NCBI RefSeq assembly: GCF_024502345.1
Contig: NZ_JALDNN010000001.1
Direction: 5' to 3' (one strand)
DNA length: 64,000 nt
From: Escherichia coli
GTDB taxonomy: Bacteria > Pseudomonadota > Gammaproteobacteria > Enterobacterales > Enterobacteriaceae
This document shows positions 52,039 to 64,000 of this stretch, in pieces. Under the pieces are notes generated by a model, which was not told the origin of the DNA, ran no database searches, and was given only the letters and a program-made list of their open reading frames with translations. Numbering within the stretch: the first letter of the stretch is position 1; the number at the start of each line of letters is the position of its first letter. Both the position numbers and the translations under genes were made by a program.

Positions 52039-52144
52039 CAGAAACACAGAAAAGAAGCGATTTGCCGCAATCTTAAGCAGTTGAATCGCTTTTACTGAAA
52101 TTAGGTTGACGAGATGTGCAGATTACGGTTTAATGCGCCCCGTT

Positions 52145-52220
52145 GCCCGGATAGCTCAGTCGGTAGAGCAGGGGATTGAAAATCCCCGTGTCCTTGGTTC
52201 GATTCCGAGTCCGGGCACCA
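52145..52220 (+). tRNA. pheU: tRNA-Phe (GAA)
   Basis: GCCCGGATAGCTCAGTCGGTAGAGCAGGGGATTGAAAATCCCCGTGTCCTTGGTTCGATTCCGAGTCCGGGCACCA, 76 nt with GAA anticodon. Confidence 0.95.
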
Positions 52221-53071
52221 ATATTCATAAGGCCTCGCTGCAAAGCGGGGCTTTTTCCTTTTCTGGCTACGGTAGATTTCTGGTCGTTGCGGCACGTTAT
52301 TTGTTTGCTGGATTTCTCGCCATTTTCGCAGTTGTTCGTTACTTTTAGACACCTCAACATCCTTTGATGTACCTTTTCCTAACCTCACAGCTACGGTCTT
52401 TCTACGGTCCTCTACGATTCCTTTCTCTCAGAGCATTCATAATAAAGTAGAAAATACGGGGAAAACGGGGGAATTATCATTTCGCCCTAATCCGCAGGTC
52501 TTAACGTGATTTTGTCGCGGGGAATAAGGTGGGGAAATCCCCAATAGCAAGCGGGGAAATCTGGCAGCATACCCCCTCCACCATTCACATGGGGATCTTC
52601 ACCAGTCCGTCCACCTACAACAAGCTCTTCTTGCCCTTTCACTTCTTACCGTTTTCAGAATCCCCCGTTCTCCACGCCATCATAAAATGATTTATCCGTA
52701 AGCTTAACGTAATGGACTGTTGAACCTGAGTGTCCGCTGTGAGCGAAAAGCGGAACTTCTCACATAGGTAATGAAGCGTTTCCTAACGTCAGGGTGTACT
52801 AATCAACGAAGAGCAGGTCAGAGGACTCGAACCGCTTTCCTCTTCCATCTACGTAGAATTCCAAGAATTTATGTGCTTTCCAGTTACAATTTAGCCATGC
52901 TAAGTTAGAAAAAGCATTGAGTACCTTAGGATTGTATCGATGATACTCTAAGGATCTTGGAGGCTTGTGAGGCGTAAGGTTCAAAGCCAATAGTTTATTA
53001 ATAGTCACACAAGTGGCTCTATTTTTCGCCTACAAACCTATATTTTTCATACAAATAAAAGAAGTGTATTT

Positions 53072-54490
53072 ATGAATACTCAGCAAATTAAGGTTGGCAG
53101 TGTACCTGAAATTATTGAGCTATTACCAAACTCTAGCGAGCAGGCTGATTCTCATCCTTTCATCCTATCGGCAAACAGTGCATGGGGTGAACAGGGAGCA
53201 GAAATATCAATAGAGAGATTACGCCAAAATATCGAGCCTTGGCTAACAGCTCTCTTCCAATCCGAACATTTAAATTTATTGATAGGTGCGGGTTTAAGCA
53301 CGTCTATTCAAATATCGGCTACAGATTCACCTCCAGCTGGAATGGGTTGGATCAGCGATCTAGCCGTATGTAAAAGTGAAATAGATGCATTTTCTACTCT
53401 GGCTGCCAAAGCTGCAGGTCGCGATAACGGAAATATAGAAGATCAAATTAGAGCTATTAATGAACTTATTAAAGGGCTTGAAATTCTGACAGTGTTGAAT
53501 ACCCCTCAACCTGAAAATCCTCCAGCTCCTCATGCTGCTTATAGAAATCTAAAAACGGATTTAGAAATACTCAAGGGAGAGCTTTCTCGCTGCCTAGGTG
53601 AGTTTTCAAGATCTGTGAGTGCCGGAGAATACTTGATTAAAACTGCTGAACCAAAGCGTAAAGAGGAAACTTTCAACTATCTAGTTAGTTTCTTGATGAG
53701 CTTTGCAAGTAGGACCGCTACTCGCGATAGGTTGCATATTTTTACAACAAACTATGATCGCATTATTGAAGTAGGTGCTGAGCTTGCTGGTTTGAGACTT
53801 ATAGATCGCTTTGTAGGAAGTATCGCTCCAGTGTTTCGATCTTCAAGATTGGAGGTTGATTATCACTATAATCCTCCAGGAATTCGTGGCGAACCAAGAT
53901 ATTTAGAAGGCGTAGCGCGTTTTACTAAGCTTCATGGATCCCTTGATTGGCATGAACAAAATAGCGCGATTAGGCGCTTTGGTTTACCTTTTGGAGCACG
54001 TTCTGTTGAACCTTTTTTAGAAGCTGAAGGCCATCAAAGCAACAGCTTTGAACAACTTATGATTTACCCTAACTCAGTAAAAGATAGAGAAACTGCCGAG
54101 TACCCTTATGTTGAGCTATTTCGAGATCTAGCCGCAGCAACTAGCCGCCCAAATAGCACATTAGTCACCTATGGCTATAGCTTTGGTGATGAGCATATCA
54201 ACAGGGTAATTGAAGACATGCTTACAGTGCCTTCGACTCATGTAGTCATAATTGCCTTCGGAGATCCGCTTGGAAGAATCATAAATTTCATTAATAAGAG
54301 TGGAAGAAAAGCACAGATCACCCTATTAATGGGAGACCATTTAGGAGACCTCAAGACTTTAGTTGATAACTATTTACCTAAACCAGCTATTGATAAAGCA
54401 TCAATAAAAATGACTGAATTGCTTAAGCAAAGAGGATTTATCCAGCCCAAAGAATTAGGTAATTCAACTGGCTCCGAGGTATCACAATGA
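53072..54490 (+). CDS. SIR2-like NAD-binding protein (candidate NADase effector of a SIR2-HerA defence pair)
   Basis: 472-aa ORF with Rossmann GAGxS (LLIGAGLSTS), a sirtuin TQNID-like motif (FTTNYDRIIE) and a catalytic-His motif (FTKLHGSLDWHE); AT-rich. Confidence 0.7.
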   Translation: MNTQQIKVGSVPEIIELLPNSSEQADSHPFILSANSAWGEQGAEISIERLRQNIEPWLTALFQSEHLNLLIGAGLSTSIQISATDSPPAGMGWISDLAVCKSEIDAFSTLAAKAAGRDNGNIEDQIRAINELIKGLEILTVLNTPQPENPPAPHAAYRNLKTDLEILKGELSRCLGEFSRSVSAGEYLIKTAEPKRKEETFNYLVSFLMSFASRTATRDRLHIFTTNYDRIIEVGAELAGLRLIDRFVGSIAPVFRSSRLEVDYHYNPPGIRGEPRYLEGVARFTKLHGSLDWHEQNSAIRRFGLPFGARSVEPFLEAEGHQSNSFEQLMIYPNSVKDRETAEYPYVELFRDLAAATSRPNSTLVTYGYSFGDEHINRVIEDMLTVPSTHVVIIAFGDPLGRIINFINKSGRKAQITLLMGDHLGDLKTLVDNYLPKPAIDKASIKMTELLKQRGFIQPKELGNSTGSEVSQ

Positions 54491-56520
54491 GTTACTTACC
54501 AATAGAAAGATTAGAACAATTAAGAATTGGATCTGTTGGATTTGTATCACCTAATGAAATTAGAGTTTCTTTAGAGATTGACTCCCCTGATTCAGTGTCA
54601 CTTCAAGGCGGTTCCCCCCGCAATTTTCCTCGAATAAATAGTTATGTACTGATCAGTAGCGATGATGGATTTCTCGTCGGACAGGTTGAATGGATTGCCG
54701 TAGAACACTCTCCATACCCCAAAAGAAGAGGCTTACAAGATTTTGGCTTGATAGATCTTCCTTTTCCACTTAAAAAGCTCAGTATCAATCCCGTTGGTAC
54801 TTTGAGAGTCGATAGAAAAAACGAAGATTACAAGTTCACAAGAGGAACAGATGCTTTTCCCTCGGTTGGTGACTCCGTGCTCCTGCCTACTGACCGGCAA
54901 TTAAAATCAATAATAGAATCAGGTGACAATAGAAGAGTAAAAATAGGGGACAGCCCCCTAGCTAACAATGCGGAAATAAAAGTGGACCCTGATAGGCTTT
55001 TTGGACGACATTTAGCTGTTTTGGGCAATACAGGTAGTGGTAAATCATGCTCGGTTGCGGGGTTAATTCAATGGTCTTTAGATGCTGTTTTACAACAGGG
55101 ACAGATTCCAAATGCTCGGTTCATAATACTTGATCCAAATGGAGAATACAGTAGGGCATTCGGCCCAGAATCAAAATACAAGGGTAAGCTATTACGTGTA
55201 GAAGCTAACACTGGTGCTGAAGAGATAGATCTTAAAGTTCCGTCATGGTTATGGAATAGCTCTGAGTGGGGTGCTTTCACTCAAGCGAGTTCAAAAGTTC
55301 AACTTCCTTTACTACGCCGAGCTTTGAGGGCGATGAGAAATGATGTTTTATCAGAAGATGATGTGACAATCCAAGCGAAACACTTCTGCGGTATCCTACT
55401 CGTATCCATACGACAATTATCAAGCCAAGGCCAGATATATGTGAATGGCGGCCATGCCAAAGGTTTCGTTGATAGTTTAACGTCTTGGAATAATAGCCTG
55501 TCCACATTAAACGACAAAATCGATAACAAACCTTTCGATAATCTAATAAACACGATGAATGTGTATCTTTCCTCTCGTATAGGAATAAAATGGCCTGAAA
55601 AACCTGAAGTTTCAGATACTGATCAGTTGATTAATGAATTAAAAAATGCATATGAAACGCTTGGAGGTGATGAACAAGGACTTCTTCCAAAAAGTGAAGA
55701 TTCGCCTATTCGTTTTAAAGGGGATGATTTTGTCGCATACCTAGAAGCTCTAGCTCAAGAGACAGGCACAGAGCAATTCGTTGAATTCCTTTTGACTCGT
55801 ATTCGAACAATGCTAGGTGACACCCGTATAAGTGCAGTAACAAATGATTCGGAACAGCCTATCAGTTTAACTAATTGGTTAGACACTTTTCTCGGTAGAG
55901 ATGGACAAGGTTCCATAACTGTTATCGATTTATCGCTAGTCCCTAATGAAATAATACATTTGGTAACTGCTGTAATTTCCAGAGTAACTTTTGAAGCATT
56001 ACAACGTTATCGAAGACTTAAGGGGAAACCACTACCAACAGTTATGGTTGCAGAAGAAGCGCATACATTTATTAAACGCTACAAAGAAGATAGTGAGGGT
56101 CAGTCAGTCTCTGACGTATGCTGCAAAGTGTTTGAAAAGATCGCACGTGAAGGCAGGAAATTTGGGTTAGGTCTTGTAGTTTCTTCCCAACGACCCTCAG
56201 AGCTATCTCCGACTGTGTTATCTCAATGTAATACTTTTTTGTTGCACAGGATTAGTAATGATAGAGATCAAGAGCAAGTCCATAGACTTGTTCCCGATAA
56301 CATGAGGGGGTTGTTGAGGGAGTTGCCATCGCTACCATCTCGGCATGCCATTCTACTAGGATGGGCTTCTGAACTTCCGGTTTTAGTTAGAATGAAAGAG
56401 CTTACTGAAAAACAAAGACCACAATCTGACGATCCCGATTTTTGGGATGTGTGGTCTAACACTACAGAAGAGCCTCGCGAAGTTAATTGGCAACCAATAG
56501 CTGATGATTGGCAAAGTTAA
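54487..56520 (+). CDS. HerA/FtsK-like P-loop ATPase (candidate partner of the SIR2-like protein)
   Basis: 677-aa ORF; Walker A LAVLGNTGSGKS, Walker B VMVAEEAHTF, downstream VVSSQRPSEL motif; ATG overlaps the upstream stop (ATGA), consistent with translational coupling. Confidence 0.75.
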   Translation: MSYLPIERLEQLRIGSVGFVSPNEIRVSLEIDSPDSVSLQGGSPRNFPRINSYVLISSDDGFLVGQVEWIAVEHSPYPKRRGLQDFGLIDLPFPLKKLSINPVGTLRVDRKNEDYKFTRGTDAFPSVGDSVLLPTDRQLKSIIESGDNRRVKIGDSPLANNAEIKVDPDRLFGRHLAVLGNTGSGKSCSVAGLIQWSLDAVLQQGQIPNARFIILDPNGEYSRAFGPESKYKGKLLRVEANTGAEEIDLKVPSWLWNSSEWGAFTQASSKVQLPLLRRALRAMRNDVLSEDDVTIQAKHFCGILLVSIRQLSSQGQIYVNGGHAKGFVDSLTSWNNSLSTLNDKIDNKPFDNLINTMNVYLSSRIGIKWPEKPEVSDTDQLINELKNAYETLGGDEQGLLPKSEDSPIRFKGDDFVAYLEALAQETGTEQFVEFLLTRIRTMLGDTRISAVTNDSEQPISLTNWLDTFLGRDGQGSITVIDLSLVPNEIIHLVTAVISRVTFEALQRYRRLKGKPLPTVMVAEEAHTFIKRYKEDSEGQSVSDVCCKVFEKIAREGRKFGLGLVVSSQRPSELSPTVLSQCNTFLLHRISNDRDQEQVHRLVPDNMRGLLRELPSLPSRHAILLGWASELPVLVRMKELTEKQRPQSDDPDFWDVWSNTTEEPREVNWQPIADDWQS

Positions 56521-56941
56521 TTAACTTAACTAATTTTTAGTAGTGTTATAAGTAGTGGCTTATATCTGACATGACAGTTTAGGTTAGTAGTTTCAATCTA
56601 ACAGTAAGTGTCCACGGTGACGTTTTCATACTCAAATCTCCTGAAATGTGGGAGATTTGAGTATGGTTGTCCCTTATGAGCGAGGAGCGGAAGTTCTGCT
56701 TTAAGTGTATCAAACCCTCCAGCAAAGATGTTCTTGAATGTAATGCCATAATTTCCCTAACATTCCAGCACAAATCAATTAACTCTCAGTCCATAGTGTA
56801 TTTTACTTAAATTAAAATCAAATACTCTAGGAATTAAAATAACAAGATCACTTGCGATTATGCTATTTTAAATTAATATTTTTGTTTTTACTGGGGAACC
56901 TTCAAAACACGGAGCCAGATTTCTTCGTAGCTACCCTGTTG

Positions 56942-57766
56942 CTAGGGTTTCAAGTATTCCCCTAAAGGAAAGAAATTTTTTGACAACTTTTGGGATTCAG
57001 CAATTTTAACCAAATAAATATAGAATCCCAACAGAGCACTGTTCTCGCTTTCCCCCCTCGAATAGTGAACATGCCCAGGCACCTTCCGGATGAGGAAACC
57101 ATTATTTTTTACCAAATAATACCCTCTATCTAAAATTGTAATTACATCAGGCATATCATCTAAATCGATATTATTTCCAGTCATGTAATTAAACAGCGAA
57201 TCTCGTAAGGTACTTTCCTCTGGACCTTGGAAGGCTAGTAGTAAGAATGGTGTTTTTCTCAAGGTTGCACACATCCCTGAGATTTCCTCTACTAATTGCA
57301 CTGTATTTTGGGGAATATTTTCTTTCATAAAATAACCATCGTCAATACCGATTGGATTGATTCTTACCAAACCTTTTGACCTAACGCAAGCATCTAAGGT
57401 TGTCTTAAGGTTTGAAGCTCCTTCGGTCATTGAGCCAGTGTTTAATGAAGATTTACATTCAATTAACGCTAAAGCTGAATCGACAGGGACCATACACTGA
57501 TCTTTATCATAACTAAGTTTTAAAGAATGTTTCGAGTATATGATAATATCCATCTGACTTGAGAGATTATCCTTAGAGTCAAAAACCTGTCCTGATGTAA
57601 TATCTAAATTACTAGGGAGATTTGCTTTTAAAAATTCCCTTATTACAATTTCTCTAGCACTTCCTTTGCTACTCCCGTTCGTCGTTATGGATGACAAATT
57701 AAATGCTGAAACCAAAGATGCCGTATGGTTTTTTAAGTGTTTCTGGATTAATTTCATAAAGCTCAT
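56942..57766 (-). CDS. Hypothetical protein, possible PD-(D/E)xK-type nuclease
   Basis: 274-aa AT-rich ORF convergent with the SIR2/HerA operon; contains D...ExK-like residues (QMDIIIY ... ALIECK); start codon uncertain. Confidence 0.4.
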   Translation of the reverse strand: MSFMKLIQKHLKNHTASLVSAFNLSSITTNGSSKGSAREIVIREFLKANLPSNLDITSGQVFDSKDNLSSQMDIIIYSKHSLKLSYDKDQCMVPVDSALALIECKSSLNTGSMTEGASNLKTTLDACVRSKGLVRINPIGIDDGYFMKENIPQNTVQLVEEISGMCATLRKTPFLLLAFQGPEESTLRDSLFNYMTGNNIDLDDMPDVITILDRGYYLVKNNGFLIRKVPGHVHYSRGESENSALLGFYIYLVKIAESQKLSKNFFPLGEYLKP

Positions 57767-58194
57767 TCCATTTTAATTTATCTACATCGCTTAAAGGCAA
57801 ATGATGCCACCGGCTACCAATTAAAAATTATCTCAACCTGAGAGATTTTTCCAGACTCCAAACGAAAATAAAAAACTACTCGTCACGTCCCTCCTGGCAC
57901 ATAGCCGACACCAAAACCAGCAACATATGGACAACGGTCCCTGCCCTGATGGCAGGTAATTGTATCAGACTTAAACACATATTATTTCTGTGAACTCCCC
58001 CCAACGGCAGTCCTTTCCTCTGAAGACCAGAACCAGACCGTAAAGCCTGCTCTTTCTGCATTTCCCGTATTAATTCATACCATGTGGCACCAGCATTCCC
58101 TTCGCCACACCAGAAAATCAATTCCCCAATAAAAAAGTGCCGTGCCGGGGATGGGTCAACCCTGACGTTCTTTACACCAGTCACAGGAGGTTAT

Positions 58195-59379
58195 ATGTCC
58201 ACCCCCAAACGCTTCCGTTTTACTAATCAGCTCATTAAATCCCTGCCCCCTAACACATCCGATGCACGCAGTACCGATGCCGAATACAGCGACACCGAGA
58301 TTTCCGGCCTCAAGTGTCTGGTCAGCAGAAGAGAAGGTCGTAAAAAGTTTTTGCTACGCTACCTTTATCATGGACGAAAACGCGCCATCGCCATTGGTCA
58401 CTGGCCTGAAGTGGACGTCAATCTTGCTCGTCAGATTGCCATAGAACACAAACGTTCCCTTGCCACCGGCACTGACCCTAAGCAGGAGCGTGAAAACAAG
58501 AGAATGGAGCTGACGTTCGATGAACTCTTTAATCAGCATTATCTGCCATGGGCAAAATCCGCTAAACGCAGTTGGGGAAAGGATGTTCAGCGCTACCGCG
58601 ATCATATCCGTCCCGCCATTGGTCAGAGGCTGCTGAGCGATATCACACCAGCGAGCATTCTGCGCCTTCAGCAGACGTTAAGTACTTCCCTGTCAGCAGC
58701 TACCTGTAACCGTGTCATCGTACTCATTAAAGCCGTCTTTACATGGGCCGGAAGGCAAAGCATGACCTCTGTCCATCCGGCAAGGGTGGTACAGCTTCTC
58801 AGGGAGAACAACGCCCGACAGCGCTATTTCACCGAGGACGAAATTCGTCGTATTTTTCTCTCCGCCGATAACGATACCAGCCCCGTCGCGGCCCGCTATG
58901 TCAAACTGTTGTTACTGACCGGCCTTCGTCGTGATGAGCTGCGTCTGGCTAAGTGGGAGCATGTTGACCCGGTTAAACGCACCCTGTGGCTCCCGGAAAC
59001 CAAGAATGGCTATGGGCGGATTGTTCACCTTAACTCACTGGCGATGGACGTAATCAGAACGCTGCCAACGCAGCGGGGAAATCCGTGGTTGTTTATCGGT
59101 AAAAAACAAGGAATGCCGCTGAATAACCCCGTTAAAGCCTTTCAGCGTATCGTTCGTCGGGCGGGAATTTTCGACCAGGAAGTGTGTATTCATACCTGCC
59201 GCCATTCGGTTGCCGCCCTCATCGTGTCCTACGGCGGAACACTGTATGACGTTCAGGCTCAACTGGGGCACCGCAGCAGTCAGTCTTCACAACGTTATGC
59301 GCATCTTCACCCTCAGCGCTTACAAAACACCAGTCAGTTACTGGCGGAAAGGATAACGGCTCAGCTACCGTCCTTGTGA
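58195..59379 (+). CDS. Tyrosine recombinase / phage-type (P4-like) integrase
   Basis: ATG at 58195 preceded by AGGAGG; 394 aa; C-terminal catalytic R..HxxR..Y signature (HTCRHSVAALIVSYGG ... LGHRSSQSSQRYAHL). Confidence 0.85.
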   Translation: MSTPKRFRFTNQLIKSLPPNTSDARSTDAEYSDTEISGLKCLVSRREGRKKFLLRYLYHGRKRAIAIGHWPEVDVNLARQIAIEHKRSLATGTDPKQERENKRMELTFDELFNQHYLPWAKSAKRSWGKDVQRYRDHIRPAIGQRLLSDITPASILRLQQTLSTSLSAATCNRVIVLIKAVFTWAGRQSMTSVHPARVVQLLRENNARQRYFTEDEIRRIFLSADNDTSPVAARYVKLLLLTGLRRDELRLAKWEHVDPVKRTLWLPETKNGYGRIVHLNSLAMDVIRTLPTQRGNPWLFIGKKQGMPLNNPVKAFQRIVRRAGIFDQEVCIHTCRHSVAALIVSYGGTLYDVQAQLGHRSSQSSQRYAHLHPQRLQNTSQLLAERITAQLPSL

Positions 59380-59389
59380 TAACAGAAAA

Positions 59390-59418
59390 GCAGAGGCAAG
59401 TGCCCCTGCTTTTTTTTT
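59390..59418 (+). terminator. Rho-independent terminator between convergent genes
   Basis: Hairpin gcagaggcaagtgcccctgc followed by a run of nine T. Confidence 0.6.
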
Positions 59419-59434
59419 ACTGTTCAGCCATCAG

Positions 59435-59791
59435 TCAGAACGGGATGGCCCCATATTCTTCATCCGGCACCCGGTTATCATCAAATCTGTTATAGAGTTC
59501 ACGAGCACACTCGCGCGCGTCTTTAATAGACATACGAGGGAACCTGCCGAGGGGTTCATAATAGCAGGCCCCTTCAAGCGTATAACGAGCCAGGAATTTA
59601 ATCTCACCGTTGGCAATGACGGCCCGGAGCGCAGGCTCGCTGCCATCGAAGATTTCACGAGAAATGCCGTGATAAAGGCACTCCGCCAGTGTGTTAACCA
59701 GAGCGTAATCATTGAATGAGGTTTTTTCTTCATTTTCGCTGCTGATAGCGTGAGGAAAACCGTCATAGTACTGGTCTGATTCAAAAATCAT
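59435..59791 (-). CDS. Hypothetical protein
   Basis: 118-aa ORF downstream of the replication-like gene; no recognisable motif. Confidence 0.35.
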   Translation of the reverse strand: MIFESDQYYDGFPHAISSENEEKTSFNDYALVNTLAECLYHGISREIFDGSEPALRAVIANGEIKFLARYTLEGACYYEPLGRFPRMSIKDARECARELYNRFDDNRVPDEEYGAIPF

Positions 59792-59840
59792 ACATCACCT
59801 TCTATTGGTTGTTATTCAGTCAAAATGGTTTTATTCAGGG

Positions 59841-61769
59841 TTAAAATTCGGTCATCACATTGCATTTCAGAAACGCTTTTTTGACCTGGTAGTAAGACTG
59901 CGCCATCGTCTTCAGCGCTCTTTTTTTATAGTGTCCGGCACTTTCGCCAAGCAGATAACCGGAACGCTCTAACGGTCTGGCCACATCAACGGTCTTAAGT
60001 CCCTTTTCAGAACAGAGCTTTTCAAACACCGATTCATAAATCAGGAAGTCGCCGGTTTTGTAATGGACGAATCCCCACATATCTCCCGGGCATCGGGCAT
60101 GTTCGTCACGCAGGGTGATAAAGTGCCTGCTGCTTTTTGTCACCAGCGTCAGCTGAAGCTCCTCCAGCATGTTACGCACCGGGTTATACTGATTCTGGTT
60201 ATCATCCAGCCAGCGTCGTGCAGCGGACATAACGGATTCAGCCACCGCATCGCTTTCGAAAGGTAAAAGGCCATATTTCAGCGCCTTCTCTCCTGCCAGC
60301 CATACCAGCGCAAATCTTTTCAGTCCGCGCCGCTGAACGCGGGTAATATCACGCCCCTCATCCCTCAGGGCCTCTTCCAGTGCGTTACAGCAATCATCTG
60401 TCTGTTCCTGGAGCCAGGATGAAAACTCTGCGTAGGTGCGAAGACCGCCAGCCGTATTTTTCCCGGATAACAGTTTGCCGATAAATGCAGGCCCGGCATG
60501 ACCATAAGCCTCTGCCAGCCCCGTCTTCAGTGCATCTGCACGGGCACGTGTTTCTGATACCGGTTCATCCGGTTTTTGAGCATCCTCAGGCAACAGTTCC
60601 ATACTGATGGCCCTGTGCTCCTGCCCTCCCTGTAACACGGCTTTCTGTTCAGCCAGCTTTTCGGAGATTGACATCTCACCGGTGGAGAGAATAAACATGC
60701 GCCATTTAAACGGCTCATCTGCCGTCAGGCCACGGTTCAGGCGCTCTTTTGCCGTACCTGACGTAATGTTGTAAAGCAGTGAGGAAAGTTGCTTATGATT
60801 ACTCGCACCCAGTTCATCGACGCAGGCGACCAGACCGGAATAGTCAGCGAGAAGGCGCTCCATCGCGTTAGGCGTGGTATTCCAGCGAATAATATTTACA
60901 TTCCCCCCACTACCCGGCTCGCTGCCATCACCATGGACCGATGCAGCCAGCATCAGGAGAAGCGTTTTACCGGTGGTGGATACGCCGTGAAAATGAAACA
61001 TGCCCACATCCATACCGGCAGGAACCAGAAGCATCGAAGCAAAGGACGCACTCAGTGCAAAGGTCTGCGCCCAGCCATGGACATTTTCCCGGATGAGGTT
61101 AATCCACTCCTCCAGGGCCCCACCTTTGTGCAGTCCGGGACGCACGCGGAATCCCGGCAGTAGATAATCAAACCCGGTCAGAGAGGTCACAACGGGCTCA
61201 TGACCATGTAAAAAGGCCATATCCTCCGAAACGAATCCCATCGCATCTGCCATCAGATAGACAGGCAGCGGTAAACTCCGGCAGCGCTGAAGAAAACGGT
61301 CAAAAAGGGCAAACTGCTGTGGAGAGGAGCCAACACAAAATCCACGATCTGCCAGTTTGCCTACTACCTGAGCACCGCTCTGAACAATATCCTCAAAGCG
61401 TACCAGGGCCTTAACATACTTACCCAGCCCGTTACCGGTCATCAGGCTGATCCCAAGACCGGACTCCTTATCTTTTCCACAAAACAGGGCGACAGGCACA
61501 ACTGGCGTGGTGCAAACCTGCACAGGTTTCTGTCCACCGATGTAGAAAAGGCCATTAGCCGTATTCACATAATGCCGTGGCAGCCCATCACCAATACCGA
61601 GTGAAGCGATATCATCTTCACCGACCTCAGTGTTTTCAGCACGCCTGATAATTGCTTCCGACATTTTGTTGAAATTTTTATCGCGGTCAGCAAAAGCGCG
61701 AATACGCTTAATCCCGGAAACCTTAGGAACATTAGTTGTCACTTTTTTATTCATGTGTATTACCATCAA
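59841..61769 (-). CDS. P-loop NTPase, putative primase/helicase-like replication protein of an integrative element
   Basis: 642-aa ORF with Walker A (HGVSTTGKTLL) and a DE box (VACVDELG); immediately downstream of an integrase; start codon uncertain. Confidence 0.5.
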   Translation of the reverse strand: MMVIHMNKKVTTNVPKVSGIKRIRAFADRDKNFNKMSEAIIRRAENTEVGEDDIASLGIGDGLPRHYVNTANGLFYIGGQKPVQVCTTPVVPVALFCGKDKESGLGISLMTGNGLGKYVKALVRFEDIVQSGAQVVGKLADRGFCVGSSPQQFALFDRFLQRCRSLPLPVYLMADAMGFVSEDMAFLHGHEPVVTSLTGFDYLLPGFRVRPGLHKGGALEEWINLIRENVHGWAQTFALSASFASMLLVPAGMDVGMFHFHGVSTTGKTLLLMLAASVHGDGSEPGSGGNVNIIRWNTTPNAMERLLADYSGLVACVDELGASNHKQLSSLLYNITSGTAKERLNRGLTADEPFKWRMFILSTGEMSISEKLAEQKAVLQGGQEHRAISMELLPEDAQKPDEPVSETRARADALKTGLAEAYGHAGPAFIGKLLSGKNTAGGLRTYAEFSSWLQEQTDDCCNALEEALRDEGRDITRVQRRGLKRFALVWLAGEKALKYGLLPFESDAVAESVMSAARRWLDDNQNQYNPVRNMLEELQLTLVTKSSRHFITLRDEHARCPGDMWGFVHYKTGDFLIYESVFEKLCSEKGLKTVDVARPLERSGYLLGESAGHYKKRALKTMAQSYYQVKKAFLKCNVMTEF

Positions 61770-61838
61770 ATTACGCCACCGTCAGAAAACGGGTGCATCA
61801 GAACCATAGTTAAAAACCATACCGTTGAGTGAAGGTTG

Positions 61839-63251
61839 TTACCCCATCGCCCGGTTAACGACTTCGTGGTAACGCGCCGGGGAAGCGTGCAAGTAAAGCT
61901 CCGTTACTTTGATAGTGCTGTGACCCAATAAGTCTTTGACGGTGTGAATGTCGGCCCCGCTCTCAATGAGCTTTGTCGCAAAGGTATGACGCATCTCATG
62001 GATGGTGAACGGTGGAATACCCGCAGCCTCACAAAGTCGTTTTTGCAGGCGACGCGGCTCAGCAACCGGATTGTCGGTTCCCTTGCCCGGAAATACCCAG
62101 CCTTCATCACCCAGATGCTGACGCTGTTCTGTCAGAAGAACGAAAGCCTTATCACATACCGGTACACGGCGTAGTTTGCCGTTTTTGGTATGGCGAAGGG
62201 TGATAACCTTGCGGCTCCAGTCCACATCTTCAAGACGAAGGTGACGGGTTTCCCCCAGACGCAGCCCCGTCAGGGCAAGGAACATGAGAAGAGCAAGGGC
62301 TTCATGATCGGGTTTACCATTACGCCAGCGCTCACAGACGTCCATCCAGCGCTGAAGCTGGGAGTCATCCATGGCACGGCGATCTGACGTCACTTCAGGC
62401 AGCGCTTTGATATAAAGCGCCGGAGAGCGGCTGATGTATCCCATGCGTATAGCCCAGGTAAACACCGCTTTAATGAGCGCCAGATGGCGGTTGCGGGTGG
62501 CAGGCTTGAGATCGAGATTATGCAGATAGCTCAGAATATCTGCCTCCGTCATACCTGCCAGCTTTTTGTCACCGAGAAGAGGGCGCAGGTATTTACGGAT
62601 CTTAGAAAGGTCGGTGTTAGCTGAACGCTTAACGCCCGTGCTGAGTACGCTTTTCTCATACTCATCCACAAGCTCATTAAACGTCATTTTACTGTGAGTA
62701 AGAAAACGCTCACCGTAAGCCTCAACGGCGGTCTTGAGCTCCTGAATTATTTTAAAGGCATGCTCCCTTGCATCTTTAATTGAAATTTCCGGGTAGCCTC
62801 CTACGGCAACGTAGATATTCTTTCCGCGAATACTTTTGCGGACAATAAATTTAATGCGACCTGATGGATAGAATATTGCCTTAAGTCCGGTTAACTTCTT
62901 ATCGCTGGTCTCGATTGTTTGTGCAGCTTGTACTGCACGGATTTTATATTCATCAAAAAGGGCTTTAGTAAAAACACCTCCAGTATTTTTAGGTGCAACC
63001 CCTGGATATTCTACAACATCAGATACTCCAGAGTCGGAATACCCCTGAGCTTCCACATCTACATTGAAGGAATTTTTATGAGCAGCTGTGATGCTCTTTT
63101 CATCCAGCACTTGCGTTATTTTATTTAAAGGGTAATTAACTTTCATAATATGTACATGGTCCTCTGAAAATTCAGATGATAATGAGTAATTTAATATGTC
63201 GGCCAACAATGGGATAAGCTTATTTATTCGTGGCATCACTTTCAAGCCCAT
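61839..63251 (-). CDS. Tyrosine recombinase / integrase (second copy, distinct sequence)
   Basis: 470-aa ORF; catalytic signature RLGETRHL ... HEMRHTFATKLIESG ... LGHSTIKVTELYLH. Confidence 0.8.
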   Translation of the reverse strand: MGLKVMPRINKLIPLLADILNYSLSSEFSEDHVHIMKVNYPLNKITQVLDEKSITAAHKNSFNVDVEAQGYSDSGVSDVVEYPGVAPKNTGGVFTKALFDEYKIRAVQAAQTIETSDKKLTGLKAIFYPSGRIKFIVRKSIRGKNIYVAVGGYPEISIKDAREHAFKIIQELKTAVEAYGERFLTHSKMTFNELVDEYEKSVLSTGVKRSANTDLSKIRKYLRPLLGDKKLAGMTEADILSYLHNLDLKPATRNRHLALIKAVFTWAIRMGYISRSPALYIKALPEVTSDRRAMDDSQLQRWMDVCERWRNGKPDHEALALLMFLALTGLRLGETRHLRLEDVDWSRKVITLRHTKNGKLRRVPVCDKAFVLLTEQRQHLGDEGWVFPGKGTDNPVAEPRRLQKRLCEAAGIPPFTIHEMRHTFATKLIESGADIHTVKDLLGHSTIKVTELYLHASPARYHEVVNRAMG

Positions 63252-63479
63252 GAAAAATCAGCTCTTACATGCCCATTGACATTTAATACTCAAGTCAGAA
63301 AGACCATGATGATTCATCAGGAGTACTCCTGCTCAGGGAAAAGGGAAAATAGCGTTAAACCCTATAAAAAAATTGTGTTCCGGATGCATCGCCCAAAGTA
63401 AGTCAACTTTTGAGGCCCTGAAGGGCTTTGTTGAATAAATCAGATTTCGGGTAAGTCTCCCCCGTAGCGGGTTGTGTTT

Positions 63480-63884
63480 TCAGGCAATACGCACGCTTTC
63501 AGGCATACCTGCTTTCGTCATTTTGTTCAGCGCTCGTACCAGGGCCATAGCCTCCGCAACCTGACCATCGTAGTCACGCAGCGTCAGTGAACCCCCGAAC
63601 AGCTGTTTTACCCGGTACATCGCCGTTTCCGCTATCGAGCGACGGTTGTAATCTGTTGTCCATTTCCACCGCGCATTACGCTGATTAGCCACTGCACGGT
63701 TACGGTCTGCATATTCACCGGGCCAGTAACCCGCACCTTTTCGGGGAGGGATAAGCGCGCTGATTTTCTTACGCCGCAGTTCATCGTGACAGAGCCGGGT
63801 GTCGTAAGCGCCGTCTGCCGATGCTGCCCTGATTTTTCTGTGAGTCTGCCGGATAAGACCCGGGAAGGCTTCTGAGTCCGTCAC
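63480..63884 (-). mobile_element. IS5-family DDE transposase, C-terminal fragment (truncated or frameshifted)
   Basis: 134-aa ORF with DGAYDT and RSIAETAMYRVKQLFG (IS5-type D..E region); reading frame breaks upstream. Confidence 0.55.
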
Positions 63885-64000
63885 ATTGTTCAGCGACAGG
63901 TCAGCGCAGATGATTTCATGTGTTTTACTGTCAACGGCGAGATGCAGCTTACGCCAGATACGGCGGCGTTCCTGGCCATGCTTTTTGACTTTCCACTCGC

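Follow-up and report, generated by a model that had tools for sequence, protein, structure and literature searches.

A mobile single-gene DUF6602 module in a pheU island of Escherichia coli probably encodes a cA3-independent nuclease of the NucC fold

The DUF6602 gene described here is located in a 64-kb window of Escherichia coli DNA (the whole stretch analysed, 64,000 nucleotides), where it shares the cargo slot of a pheU island with a SIR2/HerA pair. The gene is probably an autonomous, cA3-independent nuclease of the NucC fold that functions in phage defence as a single gene, like the Damona system. NucC serves as the textbook example of a signal-activated nuclease in CBASS and type III CRISPR immunity. 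According to sequence and structure predictions, the DUF6602 protein keeps the scaffold and the active site of NucC without its cA3 sensor, and the gene is mobile on its own. The features discussed below are compiled in Table 1.

Table 1. Features of the pheU island and of the DUF6602 gene and protein (coordinates of the window)
Feature	Position	Strand	Remark
tRNA-Phe (pheU)	52145-52220		Island integration site
Variable cargo slot of the pheU island	52,759-57,886		Between conserved ~540-bp leader and integrase
SIR2/HerA module	52889-56572	+	SIR2 53072-54490, HerA 54487-56520
Separable segment	56,915-57,794		880 bp, gene plus ~28 bp on each side
DUF6602 gene, most likely CDS	56942-57757	-	271 aa plus stop
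Open frame of the DUF6602 gene	56942-57766	-	9 nt more upstream, to ATG 57766; 274 aa
C-terminal segment, residues 259-267 (QKLSKNFFP)	56966-56992	-	Putative equivalent of the NucC SGTVPMID pocket wall (T226/V227)
Gate-loop-equivalent region, residues 132-173 (GLVRINPIGIDDGYFMKENIPQNTVQLVEEISGMCATLRKTP)	57248-57373	-	
Putative catalytic core	57449-57664	-	Counterpart of the NucC IDx30EAK motif
K105	57452-57454	-	
E103	57458-57460	-	
D96	57479-57481	-	
D73	57548-57550	-	
G35, R38, E39	57650-57664	-	
Integrase	58084/58195-59379	+	
NucC R53 aligned to N53			R in 6/108 relatives
NucC Y81 aligned to S81			Y in 4/108 relatives
NucC T226 aligned to S262			Conserved in the close subfamily only
NucC H136/Y141 aligned to I/A (MAFFT) or I/G (hhalign)			Relatives mostly aliphatic or gaps

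The initial annotation had described an AT-rich open reading frame of 274 aa that lies tail-to-tail with the SIR2/HerA pair, and these points were all recovered: the frame was found at exactly 56942..57766 on the minus strand and contains both QMDIIIY and PVDSALALIECK, the GC content of the gene is 35.9% versus 50-58% in the flanking core genes, and 421 bp lie between the gene and the HerA stop codon. A tract of 35-43% GC, extending from ~53 to 58 kb, encloses the gene. The true start is probably ATG 57757 rather than 57766, because Met4 of the frame (MKLIQ...) is the start in all 19/19 close homologues as well as in a 100% identical protein of 271 aa from Enterobacter asburiae (UniProt/AFDB A0AB36F7X4), an entry under which the protein is already catalogued as a 'DUF6602 domain-containing protein'. 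Full-length homologues form 20 clusters with 51-91% identity (Pseudomonas, Shewanella, Motilimonas and metagenomes), and a wider search with the protein as query collected ~1,800 representative clusters at a cut-off of E ≤ 1e-3. The dN/dS ratio was 0.07-0.17 in comparisons with the five homologues that had measurable dS. On account of the homologue clusters, the identical UniProt protein and the low dN/dS, the frame is a real and intact gene under purifying selection and not a chance ORF, and it has been acquired horizontally. Simple scans detected no convincing sigma-70-like promoter upstream of the gene and no convincing terminator downstream. The divergently oriented integrase ORF was listed from GTG 58084 (431 aa), but in related genomes it is annotated with 394 aa (1185 nt). 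The actual start is therefore probably close to 58195, which would leave a divergent intergenic region of ~430 bp shared with the DUF6602 gene.

In the index of the assembly collection, 174 blocks contain exactly this protein, yet none of 5,426 complete E. coli genomes has it. Peptide-pattern scans for the close family found no relatives in 100,044 species-representative genomes or in IMG/VR, and no close relatives were present in the phage and plasmid collections, where the plasmids contained only seven distant DUF6602 matches. The taxa of the subfamily include Enterobacterales, Pseudomonas, Shewanella, Motilimonas and Vibrio alginolyticus.

The initial annotation saw no obvious family for the protein, which was wrong: residues 25-122 match Pfam DUF6602 (PF20247, E=1.3e-20) over profile positions 4-100 of 104, and PF20247 is present in all homologues of the protein. 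Genuine NucC proteins also carry PF20247, which makes DUF6602 a NucC-like superfamily. The best PADLOC match was the Cas-associated PD_DExK model PDLC01495 (E=5.8e-27, residues 7-121), two NucC effector models also matched (2e-15 and 7.5e-14), and all PADLOC matches fell within the N-terminal ~115 residues. The match to PDLC01495 spans nearly all of this 123-position profile; however, the profile covers only the N-terminal half of the protein, and no CRISPR-Cas genes were seen around the DUF6602 gene, either in the window or in the homologue neighbourhoods examined. NucC structures were the only sequence matches in the PDB. In PHROGs, only a weak match (E=0.004) was obtained, to a family whose function is not known, and the missing NCBIfam match is uninformative, since a genuine NucC (P0170) was also unmatched.

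The remote-homology search and structure prediction that had been proposed to check the nuclease reading were carried out, and the predicted structure has a restriction-endonuclease-like core within a complete NucC fold. The AlphaFold2 model (pLDDT 94.6, pTM 0.92, from a 108-sequence alignment) contains the alpha/beta core with a D...(D/E)xK triad that characterizes PD-(D/E)xK or restriction-endonuclease-like fold nucleases; the top 14 Foldseek matches against the PDB were all NucC chains, with E values down to 1e-15. In a profile-profile comparison (hhalign), the family aligned with a NucC alignment over 231 columns with 99.4% probability (E=1.4e-21). Because of the profile, AlphaFold2/Foldseek and profile-profile results, the DUF6602 protein is assigned by prediction as a full-length NucC homologue, beyond a generic PD-(D/E)xK domain.

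The active motif of NucC is IDx30EAK (D73, E104 and K106), and a D73N mutation abolishes its activity (bioRxiv 10.1101/694703). These three residues align to D73, E103 and K105 of the DUF6602 protein, in which D73 is part of QMDIIIY while D96, E103 and K105 lie in PVDSALALIECK. Among 108 relatives, G35, E39, D73 and K105 are invariant (108/108), E103 is found in 105, and 104 have an acidic residue at position 96. The residues of the D...(D/E)xK signature flagged in the initial annotation (D73, E103 and K105) thus correspond to the conserved site of NucC, and since they are catalytic equivalents that are near-invariant among the relatives, the nuclease reading is supported. From these alignments, every catalytic residue (E39, D73, D96, E103 and K105) is retained, and the protein combines the full-length NucC fold with the counterpart of the IDx30EAK active site.

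NucC is switched on by cyclic tri-AMP (cA3), which binds in a three-fold pocket with contacts to R53, Y81 and T226, and the ligand is covered by a gate loop for which H136 and Y141 form the latch; mutation of any of these five residues leads to loss of activation (bioRxiv 10.1101/694703). In the comparison set, R, Y and T occupy the cA3-contact columns in 24/24 NucC sequences. The cA3-binding residues R53, Y81 and T226 are all replaced in the DUF6602 protein, and its gate-loop region is without the latch residues H136 and Y141. According to the alignments and the AlphaFold2 model, this region is ~24 aa longer than that of NucC, with a helical insertion of 17-24 aa, and forms two predicted helices. 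Where NucC has SGTVPMID, LSxNFFP stands in the DUF6602 protein and is conserved within the subfamily. Other strongly conserved motifs of the close subfamily are RINPIGID (in the gate-loop region), TGMC and MPDxIxVLDxGYYLVKNNGF. Judged from these residues, both cA3 binding and gate-loop latching have probably been lost, and the protein is probably cA3-independent. S262, a conserved Ser at the position of NucC T226, leaves room for a different nucleotide ligand.

The genomic setting also differs from that of NucC. The effector endonuclease NucC of CBASS and type III-B CRISPR systems (PDB 6p7p, 6q1h, 7zgv), with which the DUF6602 protein shares only 18% identity and whose cA3 contacts R53 and Y81 and latch residues H136/Y141 are not conserved in it, sits with a CD-NTase or Cas10; the DUF6602 gene was never next to either in ~13 contexts. 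No cyclase or CD-NTase, type III CRISPR locus or Cas10 was found in the 64-kb window or in the ~13 homologue neighbourhoods, so the gene belongs to neither a CBASS operon nor a type III CRISPR locus in these settings, and the window outside the island is collinear E. coli core. As to the oligomeric state, an AlphaFold2 prediction of three linker-fused copies (12-sequence alignment) gave a best model with pTM 0.75 and pLDDT 74, the other four having pLDDT values of 41-62; this one model of five weakly hints at a compact homo-oligomer.

The neighbourhoods of the homologues differ every time and include prophage moron slots as well as integrase/resolvase defence islands. The gene was found in a metabolic locus in P. 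moorei, in a P. aeruginosa island of the integrase/resolvase type that also carries a PDC-S28 helicase and a BsuBI/PstI R-M system, beside a transposase in Shewanella, in a lambdoid prophage immediately behind the Q antiterminator, in a P2-like prophage directly after a tail-fibre assembly gene, in islands whose other genes were PIN-TPR and KAP NTPase, SLATT+RT and bSEFIR, serine recombinases and RT, or SacI R-M, and flanked by IS21 and AAA_13. An all-against-all comparison of the neighbouring ORFs revealed no universal partner. Only three loci (L004/L005, L016 and L017) share a resolvase-type backbone with a small serine recombinase, which suggests a resolvase-type mobile element family carrying the DUF6602 gene in Pseudomonas-like hosts. 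DNA similarity from locus to locus ends within ~30-70 bp of the DUF6602 CDS, and what moves from one anti-phage hotspot of prophages and integrative islands to another is a module the size of the gene.

Several further features of these neighbourhoods were observed. Loci L004 and L017 additionally have in common HTH_17 and two proteins of 179 and 349 aa, with the DUF6602 gene as cargo beside the resolvase. In L014, L015 and L021 (~6410-12471 in L014 coordinates), genes for a bSEFIR/TIR protein of 356 aa, an unannotated 339-aa protein, the DUF6602 protein and a 726-aa SEC-C-motif protein follow one another on the same strand; the 339-aa protein gene lies 98 bp upstream of the DUF6602 gene and has no homologue near other family members. 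Two loci have a small unannotated ORF close to the DUF6602 gene (L010 9247-9465 and L016 8523-8861; 45% identity over 60 aligned residues), on differing sides and strands.

In the window, the cargo slot holds SIR2/HerA and the DUF6602 gene, and in other E. coli strains it is occupied by an anti-phage dCTP deaminase, by a restriction endonuclease accompanied by ADH and LysR genes, or by a DUF3825 protein. The slot thereby behaves as a defence hotspot with exchangeable cargo between the attachment site and int. Within 52-64 kb, direct repeats of the tRNA-Phe 3' end were not found, and an Rfam scan of the same region gave nothing beyond the tRNA. The island backbone further encodes, both on the minus strand, a DUF927 protein (59841-61769) that resembles the replicative helicase Cch1 of SCCmec (E=2e-22), and a second tyrosine recombinase of 470 aa (61839-63251). 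An IS903-like element at 63,422-64,000 (94.6% identical to the IS903B of strain cS33a, with an IS5-family transposase fragment at 63480-63884) starts where the island similarity ends and interrupts the island ~5.6 kb from the DUF6602 gene.

All eight of the island copies listed (L023-L030) represent the same island, being 99.1-99.6% identical to positions 52,062-63,422 of the window and arranged in the order int, DUF927 helicase, small protein, int, DUF6602, HerA and SIR2. They stand beside at least three different chromosomal flanks: one is dsbD/cutA with only 72-76% identity to E. coli, another is a DUF554/decarboxylase locus, and a third resembles E. coli (92%). This indicates recent inter-species spread of the island. 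As copies of one spreading island, they count as one evolutionary event and provide no independent support for a linkage with SIR2/HerA. In the near-identical islands of E. coli cS33a and fM51a, the place of 56,915-57,794 is taken by a 1057-bp IS903B, whose flanks are 99.9% (left) and 97.5% (right) identical to the window; the element (cS33a L001 7816-8872) has intact inverted repeats and no 9-bp target-site duplication. This fits an IS-associated deletion and/or a recombination breakpoint that removed the DUF6602 gene and left SIR2/HerA intact. Owing to this IS903B-associated deletion in two related strains, the DUF6602 gene is separable and dispensable. In cS33a, the second integrase is shortened and followed by ISEc52.

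The sole published precedent is Damona, which according to Darracq et al. is a single-gene DUF6602 anti-phage system from a superintegron cassette of V. cholerae N16961; it showed anti-phage activity on expression, and its homologues, some of them near integrases or in prophages, were mostly from integrons of Vibrio and prophages of Acinetobacter (bioRxiv 10.1101/2024.07.02.601686). Damona and the present gene are alike in being a single gene with a DUF6602 domain and cross-matches to the Cas PD_DExK and CBASS small-endonuclease profiles, and the present gene thus falls within a Damona-type module. Compared by reported taxa and description only, it probably belongs to a different subfamily. 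No relevant literature was found on 'NucC-like' or standalone NucC defence proteins.

In the mechanism that we propose, the DUF6602 protein would act as a Mg2+-dependent DNA endonuclease, probably assembled into a NucC-like homo-oligomer, and would be held harmless until phage infection by dependence on some trigger distinct from cA3. This trigger may be sensed by the altered parts of the protein, the gate loop and the C-terminal region with the motifs RINPIGID and LSxNFFP; gating might alternatively come from a different ligand, from a phage component, or from substrate specificity as in type IV restriction. Cutting of DNA would then stop phage replication, and SIR2/HerA would represent a second, separate defence module in the slot of the pheU island.

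Another reading, which we consider unlikely, is that the protein is a solitary restriction-type endonuclease that is always active and substrate-specific, cutting modified phage DNA or a rare site. Unlike type IIP restriction enzymes of the Cfr10I/NgoMIV/Kpn2I/SgrAI/PspGI group, the gene has no cognate methyltransferase, and the protein has NucC-type embellishments and no evidence of a recognition sequence. No methyltransferase gene was found in the cargo slot (52,759-57,886), where the other ORFs of at least 60 aa are short and the two tested had no family match; type II R-M systems are defined by an adjacent cognate methyltransferase, and none is a conserved neighbour of the homologues. The R-M genes near the DUF6602 gene in L004 and L017 are complete RE+MTase pairs of their own.

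The initial annotation had left open an independent single-gene defence or an accessory of the neighbouring system. The independent part is favoured by the gene's own mobility and its differing neighbours, and the accessory part, in which the DUF6602 protein would be an accessory or second effector of SIR2/HerA (e.g., recruited by HerA or activated by a NAD-derived SIR2 product), has a low probability. PADLOC matched SIR2 and HerA with 2.7e-154 and 2e-252, respectively. In favour of the accessory reading, the DUF6602 gene lies tail-to-tail with HerA at the distance given above, the cargo of the three genes is carried as a unit in 8/8 listed island copies from several hosts, and HerA pairs with nuclease effectors in DUF4297-HerA systems (PMC12198126). 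In another locus, a bSEFIR/TIR gene is found two genes ahead of the DUF6602 gene; this and a second, distant co-occurrence with a divergent SIR2/HerA in L010 point the same way. However, convergent genes are not co-transcribed, which departs from the conserved co-occurrence and co-orientation expected of a third SIR2-HerA component, the nearly identical island copies count only once, and SIR2-HerA is functional, and treated in published work, as a complete two-gene system (PMC12198126). Moreover, this SIR2/HerA pair is present in 19 of 5,426 complete E. coli genomes, none of which (0/19) has the DUF6602 gene: 17 carry the pair in other loci and two show the IS903B-associated loss. The SIR2/HerA stretch is 84-88% identical to a copy in a P2-prophage hotspot between ogr and tail genes, where the DUF6602 gene is absent. 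In the opposite direction, SIR2/HerA is near the DUF6602 gene in only 2 of ~13 independent contexts, and SIR2/HerA is missing from no fewer than 10 other contexts in which the family occurs, among them that of the 84%-identical homologue.

In L010 (5605-15140), the genes for NA37 and RelA_SpoT (a weak PDC-S33 match), DUF6602, Septu PtuA/PtuB, SIR2/HerA and an integrase are arranged in a row; SIR2/HerA is again convergent with the DUF6602 gene, ~3 kb away, and a complete Septu separates the two. There, the SIR2/HerA proteins are 31-35% identical to the pair in the window and the DUF6602 proteins 72%. Co-inheritance of SIR2/HerA and the DUF6602 gene in L010 was ruled out by these unequal identities and by the Septu between them. 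The two co-occurrences exceed the naive chance expectation for so small a sample. Taken together, SIR2/HerA and the DUF6602 gene are separate modules sharing a cargo slot, and a functional link between them has correspondingly little probability. The P2-like copy of SIR2/HerA mentioned above is that of E. coli HSP60 (L002, 5044-8492), a pair of 85-88% identity between an ogr-like gene and tail genes. A DUF6602 homologue was seen in another P2-like prophage, where it immediately follows the gene for tail-fibre assembly (L013); the SIR2/HerA and DUF6602 modules use different P2 cargo slots independently. A 64-aa ORF at 56579-56773 was also considered as a partner and rejected: it has no family match, it lies in the spacer that cS33a keeps though it has no DUF6602 gene, and no small downstream ORF is conserved across the loci.

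It is improbable, to a slightly greater degree, that the NucC architecture was kept and the pocket rebuilt (RINPIGID insert, LSxNFFP tail, S262/N264) for a NAD-derived product of SIR2/HerA or TIR/SEFIR, or for a nucleotide made by the phage. If this were true, the protein would be a signal-gated nuclease listening to other defences of the island, and its adjacency to SIR2/HerA would reflect functional cross-talk.

An orphan NucC effector, activated with cA3 by a CBASS cyclase or type III CRISPR system elsewhere in the genome, is very improbable. The full-length NucC fold, the matching PADLOC NucC effector models and the Ser at the equivalent of T226 would agree with it, but R53 and Y81, which are essential for the cA3 activity of NucC, are changed to N and S in this protein and vary within the family, the latch residues are absent, the gate loop is a longer helical insert, no cyclase was seen in any neighbourhood or in the window, and the identity to NucC is low. 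A selfish or mobile-element function, in which a homing-type or addiction nuclease aids its own spread or maintenance, is equally far from probable, since the CDS-sized mobile unit with almost no conserved flanks, its position beside resolvases, integrases and IS elements and its loss through IS activity in related strains are set against the lack of a conserved partner antitoxin or immunity gene and of a homing-site signature, insertion sites that are classic anti-phage cargo slots shared with recognised defence systems, and the phage protection reported for the DUF6602 single gene Damona (bioRxiv 10.1101/2024.07.02.601686).

The autonomous, cA3-independent NucC-fold nuclease proposed here would stand for a group of NucC relatives (~1,800 clusters) that are almost unstudied, in which the scaffold and the active site are kept, the cA3 sensor appears to have been discarded and the genes are solitary in phage-defence hotspots. 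For annotation, the analysis separates two defence modules that a reading by neighbourhood would lump together, and it presents the cargo slot of the pheU island in Enterobacterales as a defence hotspot with exchangeable contents. Identification of the switch would reveal the way in which an allosteric effector of immunity can be turned into a sensor and effector in one, and the mechanism would extend to the 'Damona'-type DUF6602 defences.
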